Both the position numbers and the translations under genes were made by a program. The notes beneath the pieces are model-generated. The model searched no databases. It was not told where the DNA came from and saw only the letters and a program-made list of their open reading frames with translations. This document shows, one piece after another, positions 13,392 through 62,915 of a stretch of DNA of 64,000 nt. The stretch is from an uncultured delta proteobacterium (lineage in GTDB: Bacteria > Desulfobacterota > Syntrophobacteria > Syntrophobacterales > Syntrophobacteraceae): contig CAVUGX010000043.1 in the NCBI GenBank assembly GCA_963741035.1, positions 25,899 through 89,898 of the forward strand, written 5' to 3'. How positions within the stretch are numbered: the stretch's first letter is position 1; every line of letters starts with the position of its first letter.

Positions 13392-14618
13392 TCACTTGTT
13401 TACCAACTTCATCAAGTCCCACATGGGGAGGAAAATTGCAAAAGCAAAGAAACCGACGACACCTGCAAGACCAACGATCAGAACCGGCCCGATCGCCTCG
13501 GAGAGCCTTTTTACGGAGTAGGCGACCTCATCGTCGTAGTGTGCCGAGATTTCCCGGAGCATTCCGTCCAGGTTGCCGGACTCCTCCCCTATGGCGACCA
13601 TGTTTATCACCATCGGGGTGAAATACTTGGAGGAACTCAGTGGGCCGGCTATTCCCCGGCCTTCTTCGACACGCCCGCGGATGCGGTCGAACTGCCGGCC
13701 GATTGCAGTATTGCCGATTGTTCCGGAAAGGATATTCAATGAGTCGAGCACGGGAACACCGCTCGATTGGAGTATTGCGAAGATGCTGGAAAAGCGGGAC
13801 ATCGCGGTCTTGACAAAAAGCGGCCCCAAAATGGGTATTTTCAGGACCATGGAATCCTTGAGGAACCTTCCCCGCTCGGTTTTTTTGACGCAGTAAACCA
13901 GCCCAATCACAAGGCCCGCTATCCCCGCGACCAGCAAATACCAGTAAGCGGTGATTAAATGGTTGAGCAGCATGCAGACCAGGGTCGGCCAGGGCAGTTC
14001 GAGATTTGCGCTCTGAAAAACCGTGGCGAACTTGGGGACAACAAAGGTGAGGAGGAAAAAGAAAGCGCCGACAAGGGCTATGACAACGGTCGCGGGATAT
14101 TGCAGGGCCGACTTTATGTCGGACTTCACCCGGTTCTCGTGTTCGATAATATAGGTCAGCCGGGTGAGCACCTCCGGCAGCGCGCCGCTGGACTCGCCGG
14201 CGCGGACCATGCTGCAGTAGAGGTTGGAAAATGTCTTATGTTTTCGGAACGCGTCGTAAAGTGTGGCGCCTTCCTTGATGTCGGCAGACATTGTTGCAGT
14301 GATCTTCTTAAGCTTTTTGTTCGGACTCTGGTTTTCAAGCACCTGCAGGAGCTGCAGGATGGGCACCCCGGCCTGGAGAAGGGTTCGAAACTGTTTCGTG
14401 AAGAGGATAAGCTCCGGTGGACGGACGACGCTCAGTTTTTCGTCAATCGAGGAAAGGGCAGTGCCCTGTGATTGTGATGCCTTTGCTTCGGTCACGCCGG
14501 CGGGGATAAGCCCCCGGTCCGCCAGGATGTTCTGCGCCATTTCGGCCGAATCGGCTTCGATAGTGCCCGACAGGGTCTTGCCGGATTCGTTGATGGCCTG
14601 GTACGCAAACTTTTGCAC
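13392..14618 (-). CDS. pilC: Type IV pilus platform protein PilC / MshG (GspF family)
   Basis: The protein has 408 aa with the duplicated T2SS-F domain architecture and 3 TM segments. The start is GTG. It sits beside pilB and pilA. Confidence 0.9.
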   Translation of the reverse strand: MQKFAYQAINESGKTLSGTIEADSAEMAQNILADRGLIPAGVTEAKASQSQGTALSSIDEKLSVVRPPELILFTKQFRTLLQAGVPILQLLQVLENQSPNKKLKKITATMSADIKEGATLYDAFRKHKTFSNLYCSMVRAGESSGALPEVLTRLTYIIEHENRVKSDIKSALQYPATVVIALVGAFFFLLTFVVPKFATVFQSANLELPWPTLVCMLLNHLITAYWYLLVAGIAGLVIGLVYCVKKTERGRFLKDSMVLKIPILGPLFVKTAMSRFSSIFAILQSSGVPVLDSLNILSGTIGNTAIGRQFDRIRGRVEEGRGIAGPLSSSKYFTPMVINMVAIGEESGNLDGMLREISAHYDDEVAYSVKRLSEAIGPVLIVGLAGVVGFFAFAIFLPMWDLMKLVNK

Positions 14619-14647
14619 GTTGCACTAACTCCAAAAAAGCAAAGACC

Positions 14648-14674
14648 TCTCACCGCAGAGGCGCAGAGAAAAAC
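14648..14674. repeat. Collapsed solo arm of the GxxExxY cassette repeat (ctcaccgcagag|gcgcagagaaaaac)
   Basis: It equals the first 12 nt and last 14 nt of the 14760-14848 arm joined at the internal GCAGAG direct repeat. Confidence 0.5.
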
Positions 14675-14759
14675 CCTGGATAGCAATACCTCACCACCAA
14701 TAACGGTATATTGCCGGAATCTCTTCAAAGATTTTTTATTAGGGATTTAAGAAAGACAC

Positions 14760-14848
14760 TTCACCGCAGAGTCGTTCGACAATTCCAAAAAACCAGCAGC
14801 TTACTTCGAGGGGCTGCGGTCGATCTTTAGAGCGCGCAGAGAAAAACT
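14760..14848. repeat. Left inverted-repeat arm (~88 nt) of the GxxExxY cassette
   Basis: The sequence ttcaccgcagagtcgttcgacaattccaaaaaaccagcagcttacttcgaggggctgcggtcgatctttagagcgcgcagagaaaaa is the reverse complement of 15251-15338, with about 12 mismatches. Confidence 0.8.
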
Positions 14849-14894
14849 ACAGACGGAAGTACCTCTTTATTCTTTCAAGCCCAGGACAACTCGT

Positions 14895-15251
14895 TTAATT
14901 CCATCCTTGAGCAGCGGTACATCTCGCGAAGCGTCGAGACTTCTCATTTGATCCGCCAACCTTGAGATATGTAAGAAGCTGCGCTTCGTGAATCGGCAGG
15001 AGCACCTCGACTGCCTTGATCTCTACGACAACAGAGTTCGACACGAGTAAATCGAGGCGATAACCGCAATCGAGTCTGGCTTCTTTAAAAACAACCGGCA
15101 ATGGTTTCTGTCGTTCAAAGCAAACCGCACGCAGCCCCAATTCATGGCAGAGACATTCCTCATACGCGGACTCCAAAAGACCGGCTCCCAAAGCTCGGTG
15201 CACCTCGACAGCCGCCCCAATGATCTCTTTTGTCAGTTCATTGAATGGCAT
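14895..15251 (-). CDS. GxxExxY protein (PD-(D/E)XK nuclease superfamily), probable frameshift near the C-terminus
   Basis: The sequence is MPFNELTKEIIGAAVEVHRALGAGLLESAYEECL...HEAQLLTYLK. The family-typical tail PLLKDGIKRVVLGLKE is encoded in the +1 frame and ends at 14868, so the gene is either a pseudogene or there is a sequence error. Confidence 0.75.
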   Translation of the reverse strand: MPFNELTKEIIGAAVEVHRALGAGLLESAYEECLCHELGLRAVCFERQKPLPVVFKEARLDCGYRLDLLVSNSVVVEIKAVEVLLPIHEAQLLTYLKVGGSNEKSRRFARCTAAQGWN

Positions 15252-15338
15252 TTTTTCTCTGTGCTCTCTAAAGATAGACCGTAGCCCCTCGTAGTAGGCC
15301 ACCGGATTTTTGGAATTGTCGAACGGCTCTGCGGTGAA
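15251..15338. repeat. Right inverted-repeat arm (~88 nt) of the GxxExxY cassette
   Basis: It is the reverse complement of 14760-14848, and it begins at the predicted start codon of the GxxExxY ORF. Confidence 0.8.
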
Positions 15339-15359
15339 TTGCTTTTCGTTCTTTGTTTT

Positions 15360-17072
15360 TCAGACCATAACAGCCGATGCGGCCTCCTCGAGAGTGGTTA
15401 TGCCACGAAGGACCTTGTTCGCGGCATCAGCTTTCAGGGTCTGGAGCTTTCCCGCTTCCTGGGCGGCCCGGGCGATCTCCTGCGCCGGCTTTCTGCGCAG
15501 GATCATGTCCTGCACCATCTCGTCATTCACTAGAATTTCGAAAATGCCCGTCCTGCCCTTATGCCCGGTATTGTTGCAGTTGAAACAGCCCCTGCCCCGC
15601 ATGAAGTTTGCCTCCTTCCAATCATAGATCCCAAAGTGCTCGAGGGCTTTTTCCGGCGGCGTGTAGGGCTCCTTGCAAAATGGGCAGACGGTGCGCACCA
15701 GGCGCTGCGCAAAGGAGACGAGGAGCACCGAGGAGACGAGGAAAGGCTCGATTCCCATGTCAATGAGGCGGGTTATGGCGCCGGCGGCATCGTTTGTATG
15801 AATGGTGCTAAGGAGCCTGTGACCGGTGAGAGCCGCTTGAACTGCGATCGCCGCCGTCTCGCGGTCCCGGATTTCTCCGACCATGATAACGTCCGGGTCC
15901 TGGCGAAGGACCGAGCGGAGCCCGCTGGCGAAAGTCATGCCGGCCTTGGTGTTGAGCTGAACCTGTCTGATCCTTTCGACCCGGTATTCGACGGGGTCTT
16001 CAAGAGTTATGATATTGGTGTCGGGCTGGTTCACTTCCCGCAAAATAGCGTACAGGCTGGTGCTCTTGCCGCTCCCGGTCGGTCCGGTGCTAAGGATCAT
16101 GCCGTAGGGCTTGCGGATCGCGCCGTGGATCTTTTCCCTGTCGGGTTCCGACATGCCGAGTTTGTCGAGTGTGTAGTGCCGGGCGTTCATATCGAGCAGG
16201 CGGAGCACCATGTTTTCACCGTGAATAGTCGGGAGGGTGGATGCCCGGATGTTGATTTCGCGGTTGTCCATCCTGACTGTAAAACGCCCGTCCTGCGGGA
16301 CCCTTAGCACGGCAATGTCCATGCCGGCAAGGATTTTGGCCCTTGATATGATCGGGAGCAGCATGGACTTGGGGGGAGCGGGCGCGTCGTGGAGCTTTCC
16401 GTCTATTCGGAACCGCACCGAAGCGCTGTCCTTTTCGGGACTCAAGTGAATGTCGCTCGCCCCGTCCCTGACGGCCTGGGCTATTACGGAGTTAACCAGG
16501 CTCACGACCGGGGCCTGCTGTATCATGTCCATCAGGGACCCGACCTGGATTTCCTCGGCAGCCACCGCAGCAGTGGCGGATTCGGGTTCGGACCTGACCT
16601 GCATCTCCTCCAGGCTGCCCATGACCTCACCGAGGCTGCTGTGCATTCCGTAGATGGTGTTGCGAAGCTGGTTCAACATGCGTTCGGAACAGATAACCGG
16701 TTCGATCTCCCGGCCCGTAAGGGTCTCGATCATATCCAGGGTCTCGATGTTGGTTGGATCTGTCATGGCGATGGTAAGGACCCGACCGCTCCTCTTTAGA
16801 GGCACGCAGTTAAACTTGAGCGACATGTCGGACGAGAGAACGCCGGCAATCTGCATATCTATGGGATATTGCGCGGGGGTATATTCTTTCAGATTCAACT
16901 GGCGGCACAGCAGGTCTATGATGTTCGGCTCATCCACGAGCCCTTGCCGGGTCAGGTATTGTCCCAGCATGAGGCCGGTTTTTTTACTTGCGGCCAGGGC
17001 CTCCTGAAGCTGCTCTTCGGTAAGCAGCCCGGCCTTCACGATCATTTCCCCGAGTCTTTCCCTTTTCTTCAC
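15360..17072 (-). CDS. pilB: Type IV pilus assembly ATPase PilB/MshE (GspE family) with an N-terminal MshEN-type domain
   Basis: Walker A is GPTGSGKST. The tetracysteine motif is CPFC...CFNC. The N-terminal RLGEMIVKAGLLTEEQLQEALAAS and MLGQYLTRQGLVDEPNIIDLLCRQ match the tandem 24-residue MshEN pattern. The start is GTG. Confidence 0.9.
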   Translation of the reverse strand: MKKRERLGEMIVKAGLLTEEQLQEALAASKKTGLMLGQYLTRQGLVDEPNIIDLLCRQLNLKEYTPAQYPIDMQIAGVLSSDMSLKFNCVPLKRSGRVLTIAMTDPTNIETLDMIETLTGREIEPVICSERMLNQLRNTIYGMHSSLGEVMGSLEEMQVRSEPESATAAVAAEEIQVGSLMDMIQQAPVVSLVNSVIAQAVRDGASDIHLSPEKDSASVRFRIDGKLHDAPAPPKSMLLPIISRAKILAGMDIAVLRVPQDGRFTVRMDNREINIRASTLPTIHGENMVLRLLDMNARHYTLDKLGMSEPDREKIHGAIRKPYGMILSTGPTGSGKSTSLYAILREVNQPDTNIITLEDPVEYRVERIRQVQLNTKAGMTFASGLRSVLRQDPDVIMVGEIRDRETAAIAVQAALTGHRLLSTIHTNDAAGAITRLIDMGIEPFLVSSVLLVSFAQRLVRTVCPFCKEPYTPPEKALEHFGIYDWKEANFMRGRGCFNCNNTGHKGRTGIFEILVNDEMVQDMILRRKPAQEIARAAQEAGKLQTLKADAANKVLRGITTLEEAASAVMV

Positions 17073-24036: not shown

Positions 24037-25905
24037 ATGGAAGATATCGGCGGTGCAGTGGAAGCATTTTGCAGGCATGATGGAAACAGCCGAAAATCGT
24101 TGTGGGCAAAGCGTTTCAAGTCTTTGCTCATCAAGCGCGTACTGCCGGTCAAACGGCTAAACGACCTCCGTTGGCGGGTTAATTCGCTGCCAAACGAGAC
24201 GGCAATTCCGGATCGCATCCTTGAAGTGCTTGGCGTCACCTATGAGATTTCTGCAAACGATCTAGCCAGGACGCCTTCTGAAGGGCCCCTGGTAGTGGTT
24301 GCCAATCATCCCTTTGGCGCAATTGAAGGCTTGATTCTCGCCTCGATCCTGCTGAAGACGAGAGGCGATACCAAGGTCATGGCCAATTATTTGCTGAGCG
24401 GCCTGGTGGGAGTTCGTGAACTCAACGAATTGATGATTTACGTAGATCCTTTCGAAAGGCGGGGGTCTACGGCGCATAACCTAAAGCCTTTGAGAGAGGC
24501 CATCGAGTGGGTTCGGGGCGGACGGGCTCTGGGAATCTTTCCGGCTGGAGAGGTTTCCCACATGCACTTGAGCAGCATGAGCGTCATTGACCGGAAATGG
24601 AACCAGTCGGTAGCCCGGATTGTCAGGAAGACCAGGGCGAACGTGCTTCCGGTCTACTTCGAAGGCCACAACAGTCCGCTCTTTTGCGGGCTCGGTCTTG
24701 TGCATCCTCTGCTTCGTACGTTGATGATACCGGGAGAGAACCTCAAAAAGCGGCCCCGGATGGTGCGGGCCCATGTCGGCAAACCGGTCCCTTTCAAGAG
24801 GTTGGCTGAACTCGATGATTCGGCAATAATGGATTACCTGCGCTTAAGGACTTACAATCTGCAGAATCGCACATGCGAAAAGCATCGGCGCCTGTTTTTC
24901 CAGCCGTCAATTAATGGCGCCTCAAGCTATCGCGCGGTTGCAAGAGCGAAAGAGACCGGCTCGATAGCCTCAGAAATCCGCCGTTTGCCTCCCGAACAGC
25001 TCCTTTTTTCCTCCAGGGACTTCGATGTAGTAAGCGCCTCTGCCGCACAAATCCCAAACGCGCTTCACGAAATCGGCCGCCTGCGGGAAATCACCTTTCG
25101 AAAAGCAGGCGAGGGGACCGGGAACGCCATCGATATCGACCGCTTTGATGACTTTTATCAGCACATAATTCTCTGGGACCGGGAGCACGATCAAATTGCC
25201 GGGGCATACCGGCTTGGCCGCGCTGATGCAATCCTGAATGAGCGCGGTTTTAAGGGCCTGTATACAAGCACTCTTTTTGAATACAGGGACGGGCTGACCC
25301 CCGTATTCGGTTCGGCCCTCGAGTTAGGCAGATCTTTTGTCCGTCCCGAGCATCAGAAGACATATCAGCCCCTTATGCTTCTGTGGTCGGGGATCGGACG
25401 CTTTGTCGCAAGCCATCCCCAATACCGGTTTCTATTCGGGGCGGTAAGCATAAACAATGAATATCTCGGTGTCTCCCGTAAGCTGATGGTGGAATTCCTT
25501 AGAGAGGGCCATACACATTCAGATCTGGCAAGATTCGTGCGGGCCAGGAATGCCCCGCCGTCGATGAGGAAAAAGAACCGGGGACTGGCCTATTCGATGG
25601 TTCATGACATCCAGGATTTTTCGGAATTGATATCGGACATCGAGCATGACGGAACCGGCATTCCCATACTGCTGAAGCATTATATGAAACTAGGCGGAAA
25701 GTTTCTGGGTTTCAGCGTTGACCCGAAGTTCAACAATGCGCTCGATGCCCTCGTATTGGTCGATTTGGTTAGAGCCGATCCTCGAATCCTGGGGCGCTAC
25801 ATGGGACAGCAGGGGGTGGTTTCTTTTCGACGCTTCAACGGAGCCGGACCAGGGTCAGGGTGCGGCAGCGCCGATTGCGACTTGCCGGACGACAAGTGCG
25901 CATGA
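24037..25905 (+). CDS. Fused lysophospholipid acyltransferase (PlsC-like) and GNAT N-acyltransferase (OlsB-like); OlsF-like aminolipid synthase candidate
   Basis: The ATG at 24037 lies 10 nt after CAGGAG (the track start at 24028 is TTG). The N-terminal half carries VVVANHPFGAIEGLIL. The C-terminal half carries EIGRLREITFRKAGEGTGNAIDIDRFDDFYQHIILWD, typical of OlsB/hemolysin-like GNATs. Confidence 0.7.
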   Translation: MEDIGGAVEAFCRHDGNSRKSLWAKRFKSLLIKRVLPVKRLNDLRWRVNSLPNETAIPDRILEVLGVTYEISANDLARTPSEGPLVVVANHPFGAIEGLILASILLKTRGDTKVMANYLLSGLVGVRELNELMIYVDPFERRGSTAHNLKPLREAIEWVRGGRALGIFPAGEVSHMHLSSMSVIDRKWNQSVARIVRKTRANVLPVYFEGHNSPLFCGLGLVHPLLRTLMIPGENLKKRPRMVRAHVGKPVPFKRLAELDDSAIMDYLRLRTYNLQNRTCEKHRRLFFQPSINGASSYRAVARAKETGSIASEIRRLPPEQLLFSSRDFDVVSASAAQIPNALHEIGRLREITFRKAGEGTGNAIDIDRFDDFYQHIILWDREHDQIAGAYRLGRADAILNERGFKGLYTSTLFEYRDGLTPVFGSALELGRSFVRPEHQKTYQPLMLLWSGIGRFVASHPQYRFLFGAVSINNEYLGVSRKLMVEFLREGHTHSDLARFVRARNAPPSMRKKNRGLAYSMVHDIQDFSELISDIEHDGTGIPILLKHYMKLGGKFLGFSVDPKFNNALDALVLVDLVRADPRILGRYMGQQGVVSFRRFNGAGPGSGCGSADCDLPDDKCA

Positions 25906-56283: not shown

Positions 56284-56365
56284 CCTGTTTTCGTGTGCCC
56301 GGTCGCCGCAGCAGAGGCGCAAGCCCGTGCGAAGGCGTATCGATCACTCTGCTTCGAAAAGTTCT

Positions 56366-56397
56366 TTCACGCGGAGACGCGGAGACGCAGAGAAAAG
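56366..56397. repeat. Octamer tandem repeat / solo cassette arm (ttcac GCGGAGAC GCGGAGAC GCAGAGAA aag)
   Basis: Its ends (TTCACGCGGAG ... GCAGAGAAAAG) resemble the termini of the 14760-14848 arm. Confidence 0.5.
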
Positions 56398-56794
56398 ATG
56401 CGCACGGATAAATCGGAAGACACAGGCATGGGTTTGCGCGTTCGCAGCGCCGGGTCTTTTCATGGTTTCAGGGTGACCCGAAGGGACATAAAAAGCTGCT
56501 ACGTTCCTTTTTCATATCCAATAAAGTGCCCTTTGCGTCTAAGATCGAGGGATCCGGATCAGATGGAAAACTCGATCGTTACATCTTGCGGTGATTCATA
56601 CATCGCTCACCGTTCGTGGCTTCTTTTTTGCATGCAGACAATGAGGGCGCCTGATTCTTTAATGCGAGCAGCATTTATCAGCCAGCCTATTTATATGCGG
56701 CCGGACAGGTGATATAAGAGCCTTTCTTTGTGGACTGTCCGCGATTTTGTCTGCCGGTACAGCGGTCCTATAACCTGACATAAGGATAAAAACT

Positions 56795-62299: not shown

Positions 62300-62440
62300 A
62301 GGGCCTCCGTTTTAGATCAATATGATATATATCGACTCGATATGTGTCAAGAAAAAATATATCTGAAAAGGCTGTAAAATTTTACTCCGGTCGCAACCAC
62401 AAAAAGGAGGGTCTTCCGGCAAATGAGCACCTCCAATATT

Positions 62441-62473
62441 TTTCACGCGAAGACGCGAAGACGCGAAGAAAGA
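62441..62473. repeat. Octamer tandem repeat (tttcac GCGAAGAC GCGAAGAC GCGAAGAA ag), left arm of a decayed inverted-repeat cassette
   Basis: The terminus tttcacgcgaag is the reverse complement, at 11 of 12 positions, of cttcgcgtgcaa at 62781-62792. Confidence 0.55.
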
Positions 62474-62748
62474 GAAGGCGGAGAACAGGGATAGCGAGCG
62501 GGGAGATGGCTTTCTTTGTGCTTCGGCCCTCGGTTCTCGCTACTGCCTACGCAACTTCTTGGTAACGCATTTAACTGTGTCATCTTCTTTTCATCTTAGC
62601 GTAATCGGTCCATTCCATTTCCCAGGACTTCACGCCGTCCATTGTAAGCTCTTAGCCTGGAGCTCCGTGTCCAAACAACACAGTACATGTTTGCCTGAAG
62701 CCCCACAAAACCTGTTCTCTTGCGCCGCCGTGGAAGACGGCGCTACCG

Positions 62749-62792
62749 CTTCTTCGCGTTCTTCGACGTCAAAAACGAGGCTTCGCGTGCAA
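62749..62792. repeat. Right arm of the decayed inverted-repeat cassette
   Basis: The sequence cttcttcgcgttcttcgacgtcaaaaacgaggcttcgcgtgcaa contains the reverse complement of the CGCGAAGA octamers. Confidence 0.5.
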
Positions 62793-62915
62793 ACCGTCCA
62801 GGTACGCGTTTGCCGGATGGACCCAAAAGGAGACCTCTATTAGCGCGCAAATACTATAGATTACAAATGCATCCGGTGGGCGCGTCCTTGCTGAGAATCT
62901 TTTTGGGGTGAGGCC

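Follow-up and report, generated by a model that had tools for sequence, protein, structure and literature searches.

The stretch of DNA analysed here (the window, 64 kb from contig CAVUGX010000043.1 of an uncultured delta proteobacterium, positions 25,899 to 89,898) carries a small gene of the GxxExxY family, a family with the PD-(D/E)XK nuclease fold, in the spacer between a pilB-like and a pilC-like gene. Positions are those of the window, and L- and P-numbers denote the loci and proteins with which it was compared. A reading of the sequence alone had placed this open reading frame (ORF) between two inverted arms of ~88 nt at roughly 86 percent identity, tightly fitted to the gene, in a 579-bp unit that fills most of a 741-bp gap. 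The observation of an arm-framed GxxExxY ORF in the spacer holds in all its details. A repeat search returned two inverted arms of 96 nt each, 85% complementary and with 405 nt between them, and direct comparison of one arm with the other gave 84/100 identical positions. The upstream arm ends at 15252 and directly borders the ATG (15251-15249), while the frame-corrected stop codon TAA (14869-14867) stands 20 nt from the downstream arm; the spacer is indeed 741 bp long. Both arms start with TTCACCGCAGAG, the left one ending in GCGCAGAGAAAAA and the right one in GCACAGAGAAAAA, and all three exact matches to the 10-mer CACCGCAGAG in the window fall inside the pilB-pilC spacer. BLAST detected no further copy of the long arm or of the gene within the window, Rfam gave no family for the whole window at gathering thresholds or for 14600-15400 at E<=1, and no tRNA or tmRNA was found in the window. 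The nearest loci, L010/L011, and the names borne by PilC homologues suggest a Syntrophobacteraceae-like Desulfobacterota genome as the probable source.

Arms of this kind accompany much of the GxxExxY family. Scanning one genome per species added 80 GxxExxY loci (57-88% identity), which belong to Desulfobacterota, Acidobacteriota, Planctomycetota, Chloroflexota, Cyanobacteria, Bacteroidota, Verrucomicrobiota, Proteobacteria and two archaea. For 84 non-redundant genes from >10 phyla the best upstream/downstream inverted repeat was scored against 237 control ORFs of the same loci: a flanking inverted repeat above the control 95th percentile is present at 56/84 genes, and at 42 of the 84 it lies at or over the 99th percentile. 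These counts speak clearly against the possibility, raised with the sequence-only reading, that GxxExxY copies elsewhere are unlinked to arms. The median arm is 31.5 nt long, ends 18 nt before the start codon and starts 11 nt after the stop. In its canonical form (~25-30 nt) it consists of TTCACC, tandem 8-9-nt RCRCRRAG units and an A-run bordering the ATG. The unit itself varies among loci (GCAGAG, ACAGAG, ACGGAG, GCAAAG and ACGAAG, with ACAGAT / ACGGAT in L114 and L115), and the window holds several variants (GCAGAG, GCGGAG, GCGAAG). Since differing variants coexist in one genome, the arm type goes with the element rather than with its host. Both arms of a cassette carry the same variant at 25/26 scorable loci, against 24% expected, and protein identity is slightly greater within an arm type (0.66 versus 0.61).

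The same plan recurs in very different surroundings. The arms of close homologues elsewhere are short and read TTCACCGCAGAG(GCGCAGAG)n...AAAA-ATG ... stop-TTTT...(CTCTGCGC)nCTCTGCGGTGAA; one such cassette (L007) lies between flagellar genes beside an IS110-family transposase gene, another (L008) upstream of a further T2SSE-T2SSF pair, and L011 and L012 add other contexts. The plan is also seen after gatB in L123, a member of a clade ~45% identical, in the viral contigs L119 and L121, and in isolate replicons of Bacteroides finegoldii (radA-GxxExxY) and Bernardetia sp. (ade-GxxExxY). In L121, where the homologue is 36% identical and the DNA AT-rich, an AT-rich unit of 11 nt builds up the arms, which form perfect inverted arrays of 29 nt. 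Identity between phyla amounts to 57-70%, and the phylogenetic spread is broad and mixed. PF13366 comprises 22,129 clusters at 50% identity, from bacteria, archaea and a few viruses; GxxExxY genes are rare in viral contigs, with four family matches in IMG/VR. The literature on the family gives its function as 'Unknown' and mentions 'multiple transfers', and our searches on GxxExxY, PF13366, TIGR04256, PDDEXK with inverted repeats and IVS protein (IVS, intervening sequence) found the association with flanking repeats undescribed. We take GxxExxY genes to be usually multi-copy per genome; comments in curated databases reportedly mention large paralogous families both of this protein and of the S23p-like four-helix-bundle family within the same genomes. 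Two divergent GxxExxY genes lie 3-4 kb apart on one contig at L030 (2971-3372 and 5702-6094) and at L123 (4001-4384 and ~8381), which is consistent with several cassette lineages per genome. Many family representatives (e.g. P0361-P0371) are 260-295 aa long and have two matched stretches; they would be either two GxxExxY domains fused in tandem or the product of reading through neighbouring cassettes.

The window gene is a family member by descent, but a damaged one. It matches PF13366 (PDDEXK_3) with E=1e-34 (119.7 bits, cut-off 22) and TIGR04256 with E=3e-36 (124.2 bits, cut-off 35), yet the profile match covers positions 1-97/117 only, and the conserved C-terminal GLLINFN...GIxR strand-helix is incomplete. 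The ORF has the motifs GLLESAY, RLDLLV and VEIK as well as the D...ExK catalytic motif; an alignment of 112 sequences shows no variation at G24, E27, D67 or K79, while Y30 and E77 are conserved in at least 90%. The C-terminal frame break noticed earlier is real, but it is neither a simple frameshift nor a sequencing error. A 33-nt patch, with a small palindrome TCTCG-N8-CGAGA inside it, replaces 32 nt that code for ~WKVGLLINFNV in the intact gene and so gives a +1 break, after which the homologous frame picks up and runs to the TAA. Sequencing error is ruled out because the patch is common to L001-L004, which are independent assemblies with the cassette between the same genes; proteins P0002 and P0003 end in the same aberrant C-terminus. 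The resequencing suggested earlier is therefore unnecessary. At L005/L006 the same site holds an intact 127-aa gene (P0001, 96%-identical). When the first 99 codons of the damaged copies are compared among themselves and with the intact copy, 10 codon changes are synonymous and 2-4 non-synonymous, so the N-terminal part has been kept under purifying selection or corrected from intact copies. The same ratio suggests that the 118-aa product of the window may still fold and be active. The protein had no match in PDB (searched by sequence), PADLOC or PHROGs. Its AlphaFold model reaches a pLDDT (predicted local distance difference test) of 95.6 from the 112-sequence alignment and of 43 from 14 near-identical sequences.

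Compared with the canonical arm, the long arm of the window has 62 nt more, between the first unit and the last unit with its A-run. The ~88-nt arm is thus not the basic repeat: the long arm is a composite of a ~25-nt tandem-octamer arm and a separate, optional, conserved hairpin module of 62 nt. Close relatives differ in which of their arms carry this module. Arms 1 and 2 of the window are long and a third arm closer to pilC is short; in L001 and L004 all three are long; in L005 arms 1 and 2 are short and arm 3 is long. In the JGI metagenomes a pattern search turned up six unrelated contigs that carry the module, at a constant position after TYCACCRCRGAG and before RCRCRGAG-AAAA, in arms of differing unit types, and one 13-kb metagenome contig has three copies. 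Nineteen distinct module copies were gathered, 16 of which align as a two-helix hairpin, UCGAC/GUCGA around GUGGCCU/GGGCUAC, with some compensatory change; Rfam holds no match for it. The module may be a rider that seeks out the arm as its target, or else another form of arm architecture, made uniform by homogenisation from arm to arm. At the same internal position arm 3 of L094 carries a different insert of ~105 nt, related to window 56351-56497. This second small repeat element (window 56351-56497, plus strand; L094 3352-3460) reads TTCGAAAAGTTC ... CTTTTCRTGGTTTCAGGGTGWCCCGRAGGGACATRAAAWG with CTGC at both edges. Its L094 copy is inserted in arm 3 of the pilB-pilC spacer, and its window copy lies 41 kb off and itself contains a solo arm; together they give the impression of small elements nested in one another, for which CTGC is a possible target.

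Gene and arms form a discrete, insertable unit, as follows from gene-less arm pairs, from nested copies and from a close relative that lacks the gene and arms 1 and 2. At least 12 gene-less pairs were met in ~580 kb of loci, each an R-loop-Y palindrome (a purine-rich arm, a loop and the complementary arm), and in L114 the loop of an ACAGAG-type hairpin that bears the module contains a nested hairpin of the ACGGAT type. Homologues as close as 74-88% amino-acid identity stand in unrelated contexts, with similarity ending at the outer ends of the arms. That pilB and pilC are normally adjacent, as had been assumed, is borne out by spacers of 43 bp in L090, which has the same secretin-AAA_22-T2SSE-T2SSF synteny, 20 bp in L091-L093 and 59 bp in L008. 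The relative L094 (PilC 93% identical) is without GxxExxY-coding sequence and without arms 1 and 2, and keeps the pilC-proximal 120 nt including arm 3. The empty spacers proposed as a check thus exist as short spacers and as the cassette-free L094, but the latter had to be rejected as a clean empty site, with ~130 nt of other sequence in the cassette's place.

A unit-based pattern located two further arm-like sites in the window. The solo arm at 56365-56397 (plus strand) reads TTTCAC-GCGGAG-AC-GCGGAG-AC-GCAGAG-AAAAG-ATG and leads into a 104-aa ORF without a Pfam match; no partner arm was detected for it. The other site, TTTTCAC-GCGAAG x3-AAAG at 62440-62470 (plus strand), has a degenerate complementary partner at 62740-62793, with ~270 nt and no convincing ORF between them; this pair is either a decayed or gene-less cassette or one with different cargo. 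At L019 (687-1220) a canonical R-arm/Y-arm pair surrounds a 154-aa ORF directly upstream of the GxxExxY gene. This ORF has no Pfam match, and its D...EAK motif is suggestive of another PD-(D/E)XK nuclease.

Two long arms had been reported in the pilB-pilC spacer and both are there, but a third, short arm was overlooked (Table 1). A trailer related to the one between the stop codon and the 3' arm stands before the third arm too (direct repeat D1). The segment between arms 3 and 2 is conserved in every relative, including the gene-less L094, and probably represents what is left of the 3' end of an older cassette. Within it, at 14700-14740, a tract of TAAATCCC-type octamers differs in copy number among close relatives (L001 and L004 were also compared), with ~1.5 copies in the window and, at the other extreme, 5-6 degenerate ones in L094. 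On the minus strand, at 14645-14662, the outer unit of arm 3 and its flank make a terminator-like hairpin, by consensus match only, followed by CTTTGCTTTT and placed ~25 nt upstream of the pilC start.

Table 1. Features of the pilB-pilC spacer and its neighbours (window positions)
Feature	Position	Strand	Remarks
pilB-like T2SSE ATPase gene	15360-17072	-	upstream host gene, co-oriented with the GxxExxY ORF
Upstream (5') arm, long form (arm 1)	15252-15347	-	in gene sense GAAAAGCAA (15347-15339), then first unit TTCACCGCAGAG (15338-15327)
62-nt module of the upstream arm	15326-15265	-	
Last unit and A-run of the upstream arm	15264-15252	-	GCACAGAGAAAAA; borders the ATG
GxxExxY / PD-(D/E)XK ORF	14895-15251	-	118 aa as it stands; PF13366, TIGR04256
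33-nt patch	14918-14950	-	replaces 32 nt of the intact gene
Trailer, stop codon to 3' arm	14847-14866	-	20 nt; GAGGTACTTCCGTCTGTAG in sense
Downstream (3') arm, long form (arm 2)	14751-14846	+	first unit TTCACCGCAGAG at 14760-14771
62-nt module of the downstream arm	14772-14833	+	
Last unit and A-run of the downstream arm	14834-14846	+	GCGCAGAGAAAAA
Segment between arm 3 and arm 2	14674-14750	.	conserved in every relative
Third arm, short canonical form	14650-14673	+	TCACCGCAGAG+GCGCAGAGAAAAA directly abutted; orientation as a 3' arm
pilC-like T2SSF platform gene	13392-14618	-	downstream host gene, co-oriented with the GxxExxY ORF
Type IV pilin gene	13260-12850	-	

Placement of the cassettes relative to their neighbours is not random in orientation. 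The upstream neighbour is co-oriented in 66/78 cases (p=0.004) and the downstream one in 69/79 (p=0.0005), against a baseline of 0.71 calculated from the other adjacent ORFs of the same loci, and the gaps from cassette to neighbours measure a few tens of nucleotides. No sigma-70-like promoter was detected in the spacer of the window. Given the co-orientation, the short gaps and this lack of a promoter, expression by read-through is the economical inference. The purine-rich arm precedes the gene in 35 of the 42 strong cases and offers a Shine-Dalgarno-like AGAG or GGAG followed by the A-run; because the palindrome has the R-loop-Y form, a gene in its loop is preceded by a purine-rich arm in either orientation. 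For the 619-nt sense transcript the predicted fold has an energy of -264.8 kcal/mol (z=-14) and a closing stem of ~95 bp, in agreement with the double-stranded stem that the sequence-only reading had offered as an alternative to mobility. Duplexes as long as ~95 bp are among the substrates of RNase III.

The following sequence of events would accommodate these data. A promoterless GxxExxY nuclease gene of ~125 codons sits in the loop of a palindromic element, each arm of which is made up of TTCACC, purine-rich units of 8-9 nt in tandem (GCAGAG-type in the window) and an A-run, the lineage of the window adding the 62-nt hairpin module. The cassette would have entered the short pilB-pilC spacer in the direction of its neighbours, beside the remnant of an earlier element represented by the third arm. 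Read-through from pilB would transcribe it, the arms would pair in the transcript into a ~95-bp duplex around the ORF, and RNase III would cut the duplex and excise the cassette RNA, by analogy with the intervening sequences of 23S rRNA; such an excision could make an insertion inside a transcription unit tolerable. Spread at the DNA level, the least certain step of the scheme, would be slow and would probably depend on the encoded nuclease acting on the arms as a hairpin or cruciform, followed by copying via recombination rather than by DDE-type cut-and-paste. A role of the arms in DNA is indicated by conservation of the sequence itself, by units and arms evolving in concert and by the lack of G-U bias described below, and the encoded nuclease is the obvious candidate to act on them. 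On this basis we lean, with modest confidence, towards considering the window cassette an old, partly decayed copy of a widespread IVS-like selfish gene cassette that is transcribed by read-through.

Quite a number of results weigh against this interpretation. Comparison of the flanks of 20 cassettes revealed no target-site duplication at any boundary inspected, so that the check proposed earlier came out negative. No transposase or integrase role was recognisable for the cassette protein, and none of these enzymes is encoded in the neighbourhoods read, save for the IS110-family gene beside L007. Identical copies at different sites were not found: P0351 lies at one locus in 24/24 contigs read, and recent transposition, with the same protein at several sites, is accordingly rejected. 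A cassette follows tyrA in two alphaproteobacteria, and at five loci (L019, L034, L045, L048 and L053, mostly binned as Acidobacteriota, L048 being labelled Saccharimonadales) a GxxExxY gene with inside-out arm polarity lies between the genes for the large and small (B12-binding) subunits of methylmalonyl-CoA mutase. Cassettes thus occupy identical spacers in different genera, a pattern that indicates prolonged vertical residence, or else a preference for certain sites, over frequent jumping. At one of these loci, L034, the arms enclose a second, duplicated copy of a 5' piece of the small-subunit gene. Furthermore, arms were undetected at about a third of the GxxExxY genes, and their polarity is inside-out in 5/42 strong cases. 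The 213 arm mismatches show no excess of changes compatible with G-U pairing on the sense strand (transitions 58 versus 67, p=0.47), hence there is no signature of RNA-specific selection on the stem. Foldseek returned generic PD-(D/E)XK neighbours only (best TM, template modelling score, 0.44-0.50), weak ones such as Cas4, lambda exonuclease, Bax1, Hjc, splicing endonuclease and I-Bth0305I; with neighbours this generic, a DNA or an RNA substrate is not inferable. Finally, the likeness to intervening sequences of the S23p type draws on the description in one paper.

The cassettes thus present the picture of ancient, horizontally mixed, slowly moving residents, which agrees with the published statement of 'Unknown' function and 'multiple transfers', and the window copy is an old, damaged, vertically inherited insertion beside the stub of an earlier one. 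Of the mobile or selfish cassette suggested from the sequence, the selfish part is best supported, but mobility has indirect evidence only, in view of the missing target-site duplications, transposase and identical copies.

Could the palindrome instead be a domesticated RNA device, in which the stem serves as an RNase III site, insulator or stabiliser that sets pilB/pilC expression, the ORF is a passenger and the DNA is immobile now or always was? The very stable predicted stem and co-oriented, in-operon placement as a rule fit this idea, as do cassettes that several lineages have kept for a long time, by vertical inheritance, in one and the same spacer, the terminator-like hairpin at arm 3 just upstream of pilC, and an ORF that is damaged while the arms of the window stay 85% complementary. 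The authors of the work on the Coxiella intervening sequence likewise consider its RNA part to matter more than its ORF (PMC4990558). However, a device acting through RNA pairing agrees poorly with arm mismatches that lack a sense-strand wobble bias, and it leaves aside the conservation across phyla of arm sequence motifs beyond pairing. Strong purifying selection on the protein, evident both from the identity between phyla and from the predominance of synonymous changes in the damaged copies, argues against a passenger ORF; relatives manage without a cassette between the same genes, and the gene-less and nested copies resemble proliferation. We regard such a device as unlikely.

Less probable still, in our opinion, is that the arms are independent hairpin repeats of a REP/MITE-like family (REP, repetitive extragenic palindrome; MITE, miniature inverted-repeat transposable element), spread by an unlinked enzyme, with loops that act as landing or retention sites for small, horizontally acquired genes such as GxxExxY and a nuclease that has no role in making or moving the arms. 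Gene-less arm pairs are common enough for this, arms can hold other contents (the 154-aa ORF of L019, the hairpin of L114, the 62-nt module, the ~105-nt insert of L094), and both the GxxExxY genes without detected arms and the inside-out cases, where genes lie outside the arms, would be expected. What such independence does not predict is an association that spans >10 phyla and reaches down to 36% protein identity while the arm sequence shifts with the lineage, arms kept within about 10-20 nt of start and stop codons, and protein identity somewhat higher within an arm type; nor was a candidate unlinked enzyme seen. The arms might also be the terminal inverted repeats (TIRs) of a conventional transposon or MITE mobilised in trans by a DDE-type transposase, as their inverted terminal position and conserved outer ends TTCACC...GGTGAA would allow. 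The IS110-family transposase gene adjoining L007 could be cited for this, although IS110-family elements are generally without TIRs. The boundaries examined have no target-site duplications, tandem short units in variable number are unlike typical TIRs, and no transposase is consistently nearby, which makes this explanation very improbable. Chance similarity, local inverted duplication or an assembly artefact specific to the contig has a practically negligible probability: the L005 scaffold does contain Ns and metagenome assemblies can collapse repeats, but the same structure recurs in L001-L004, which were assembled independently from several samples, and in the genomes of isolates, and the scores of control ORFs never reach the observed one.

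The selfish-cassette interpretation can be carried further. There may be a vast class of palindromic mobile elements, so far unrecognised, that have arms of tandem 8-11-nt units and GxxExxY nucleases as their dedicated enzymes, the nuclease recognising the extruded hairpin or cruciform (or a four-way junction of folded 62-nt modules) and triggering copying into transcribed spacers; the ORF-bearing intervening sequences of rRNA would then be the known tip of this class. We put this forward as a speculative and rather doubtful proposal. If true, it would mean transposition or homing that is not based on DDE, HUH or serine/tyrosine recombinases. The stereotyped palindrome around GxxExxY genes in operons gives this large family a concrete, testable biology, that of a selfish cassette, and ties it to a 30-year-old puzzle, the origin and movement of ORF-bearing rRNA intervening sequences. 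The arms also account for many spurious, repeat-encoded 'hypothetical proteins' and predict RNase III processing sites within operons such as pilB-pilC. Cultured hosts exist for experiments, for example Bacteroides finegoldii with its radA-GxxExxY arrangement.

Several known systems share part of this anatomy. In the REP/REPIN and RAYT systems ('REPtrons'; RAYT, REP-associated tyrosine transposase) a small nuclease-type gene is flanked by inverted palindromic repeats that are also dispersed without the gene; RAYTs are relatives of HUH/Y1 transposases, usually single-copy and vertically inherited. The cassettes resemble them in that a nuclease gene is flanked by inverted repeats which occur gene-less as hairpins too and co-vary with the lineage. 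They differ in having a PD-(D/E)XK gene instead of an HUH/Y1 (IS200/IS605-like) one, in being horizontally mixed, and in arms that are arrays of 8-9-nt units, whereas a REP is a single hairpin. With free-standing and intron-encoded PD-(D/E)XK homing endonucleases (for example I-Bth0305I, I-Ssp6803I) they have in common a small selfish nuclease gene wedged between conserved co-transcribed genes, presence or absence among close relatives and no target duplication; unlike homing endonuclease genes, they are framed by inverted repeats, and the structural similarity is that of the generic fold only. Terminal inverted repeats, short gene-less derivatives, nesting and intergenic position recall MITEs and TIR transposons, but the lack of target-site duplication and the tandem-short-unit arms set the cassettes apart, and a DDE-type MITE was rejected on anatomy; no cognate transposase was seen in the neighbourhoods read, where L007 alone has an IS110-family gene beside it. 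Like an integron cassette, the element combines a promoterless small ORF, read-through expression and an imperfect palindrome. However, it has an arm on each side where an integron cassette has one downstream attC, no cassette array or integrase is present in the neighbourhoods seen, and its arm ends TTCACC...GGTGAA are not the RYYYAAC / GTTRRRY core sites, on which ground an integron cassette was rejected.

The closest resemblance is to the intervening sequences of rRNA in Coxiella burnetii and Leptospira, which are selfish inserts of the same size (~0.4-0.6 kb) transcribed within the host RNA (PMC4990558). In both cases terminal inverted repeats pair into a stem, ~95 bp here and 28 bp in the Coxiella 23S rRNA IVS, whose loop holds a small ORF, and tandem purine-rich units precede the ATG. 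In Coxiella, 2-3 GACAGAT heptamers, variable in number, and a GACAGAA stand directly before it (PMC4990558); the units here, 8-9-nt RCRCRRAG, resemble them, and L114 and L115 have the ACAGAT and ACGGAT variants. A weak AG-rich ribosome-binding site, decay of the ORF in some copies and horizontal acquisition followed by vertical maintenance are shared as well. No rRNA match was found by Rfam in the window and no rRNA motif in the first 89 loci fetched. Four-helix-bundle cargo was not recognised among 52 arm-adjacent ORFs (~130 loci), inspected by eye without a profile scan, or near plasmid-borne copies. The differences lie in the host site, an intergenic spacer of an mRNA here and an rRNA helix there, in the cargo, a PD-(D/E)XK nuclease as opposed to the S23p four-helix bundle (PF05635), and in the excision by RNase III, which has been demonstrated at the first repeat in Coxiella (PMC4990558) and would take place here by analogy. 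Palindromic ORF cassettes of the IVS type are thus already known; what is new is the nuclease cargo and the residence in mRNA operons.

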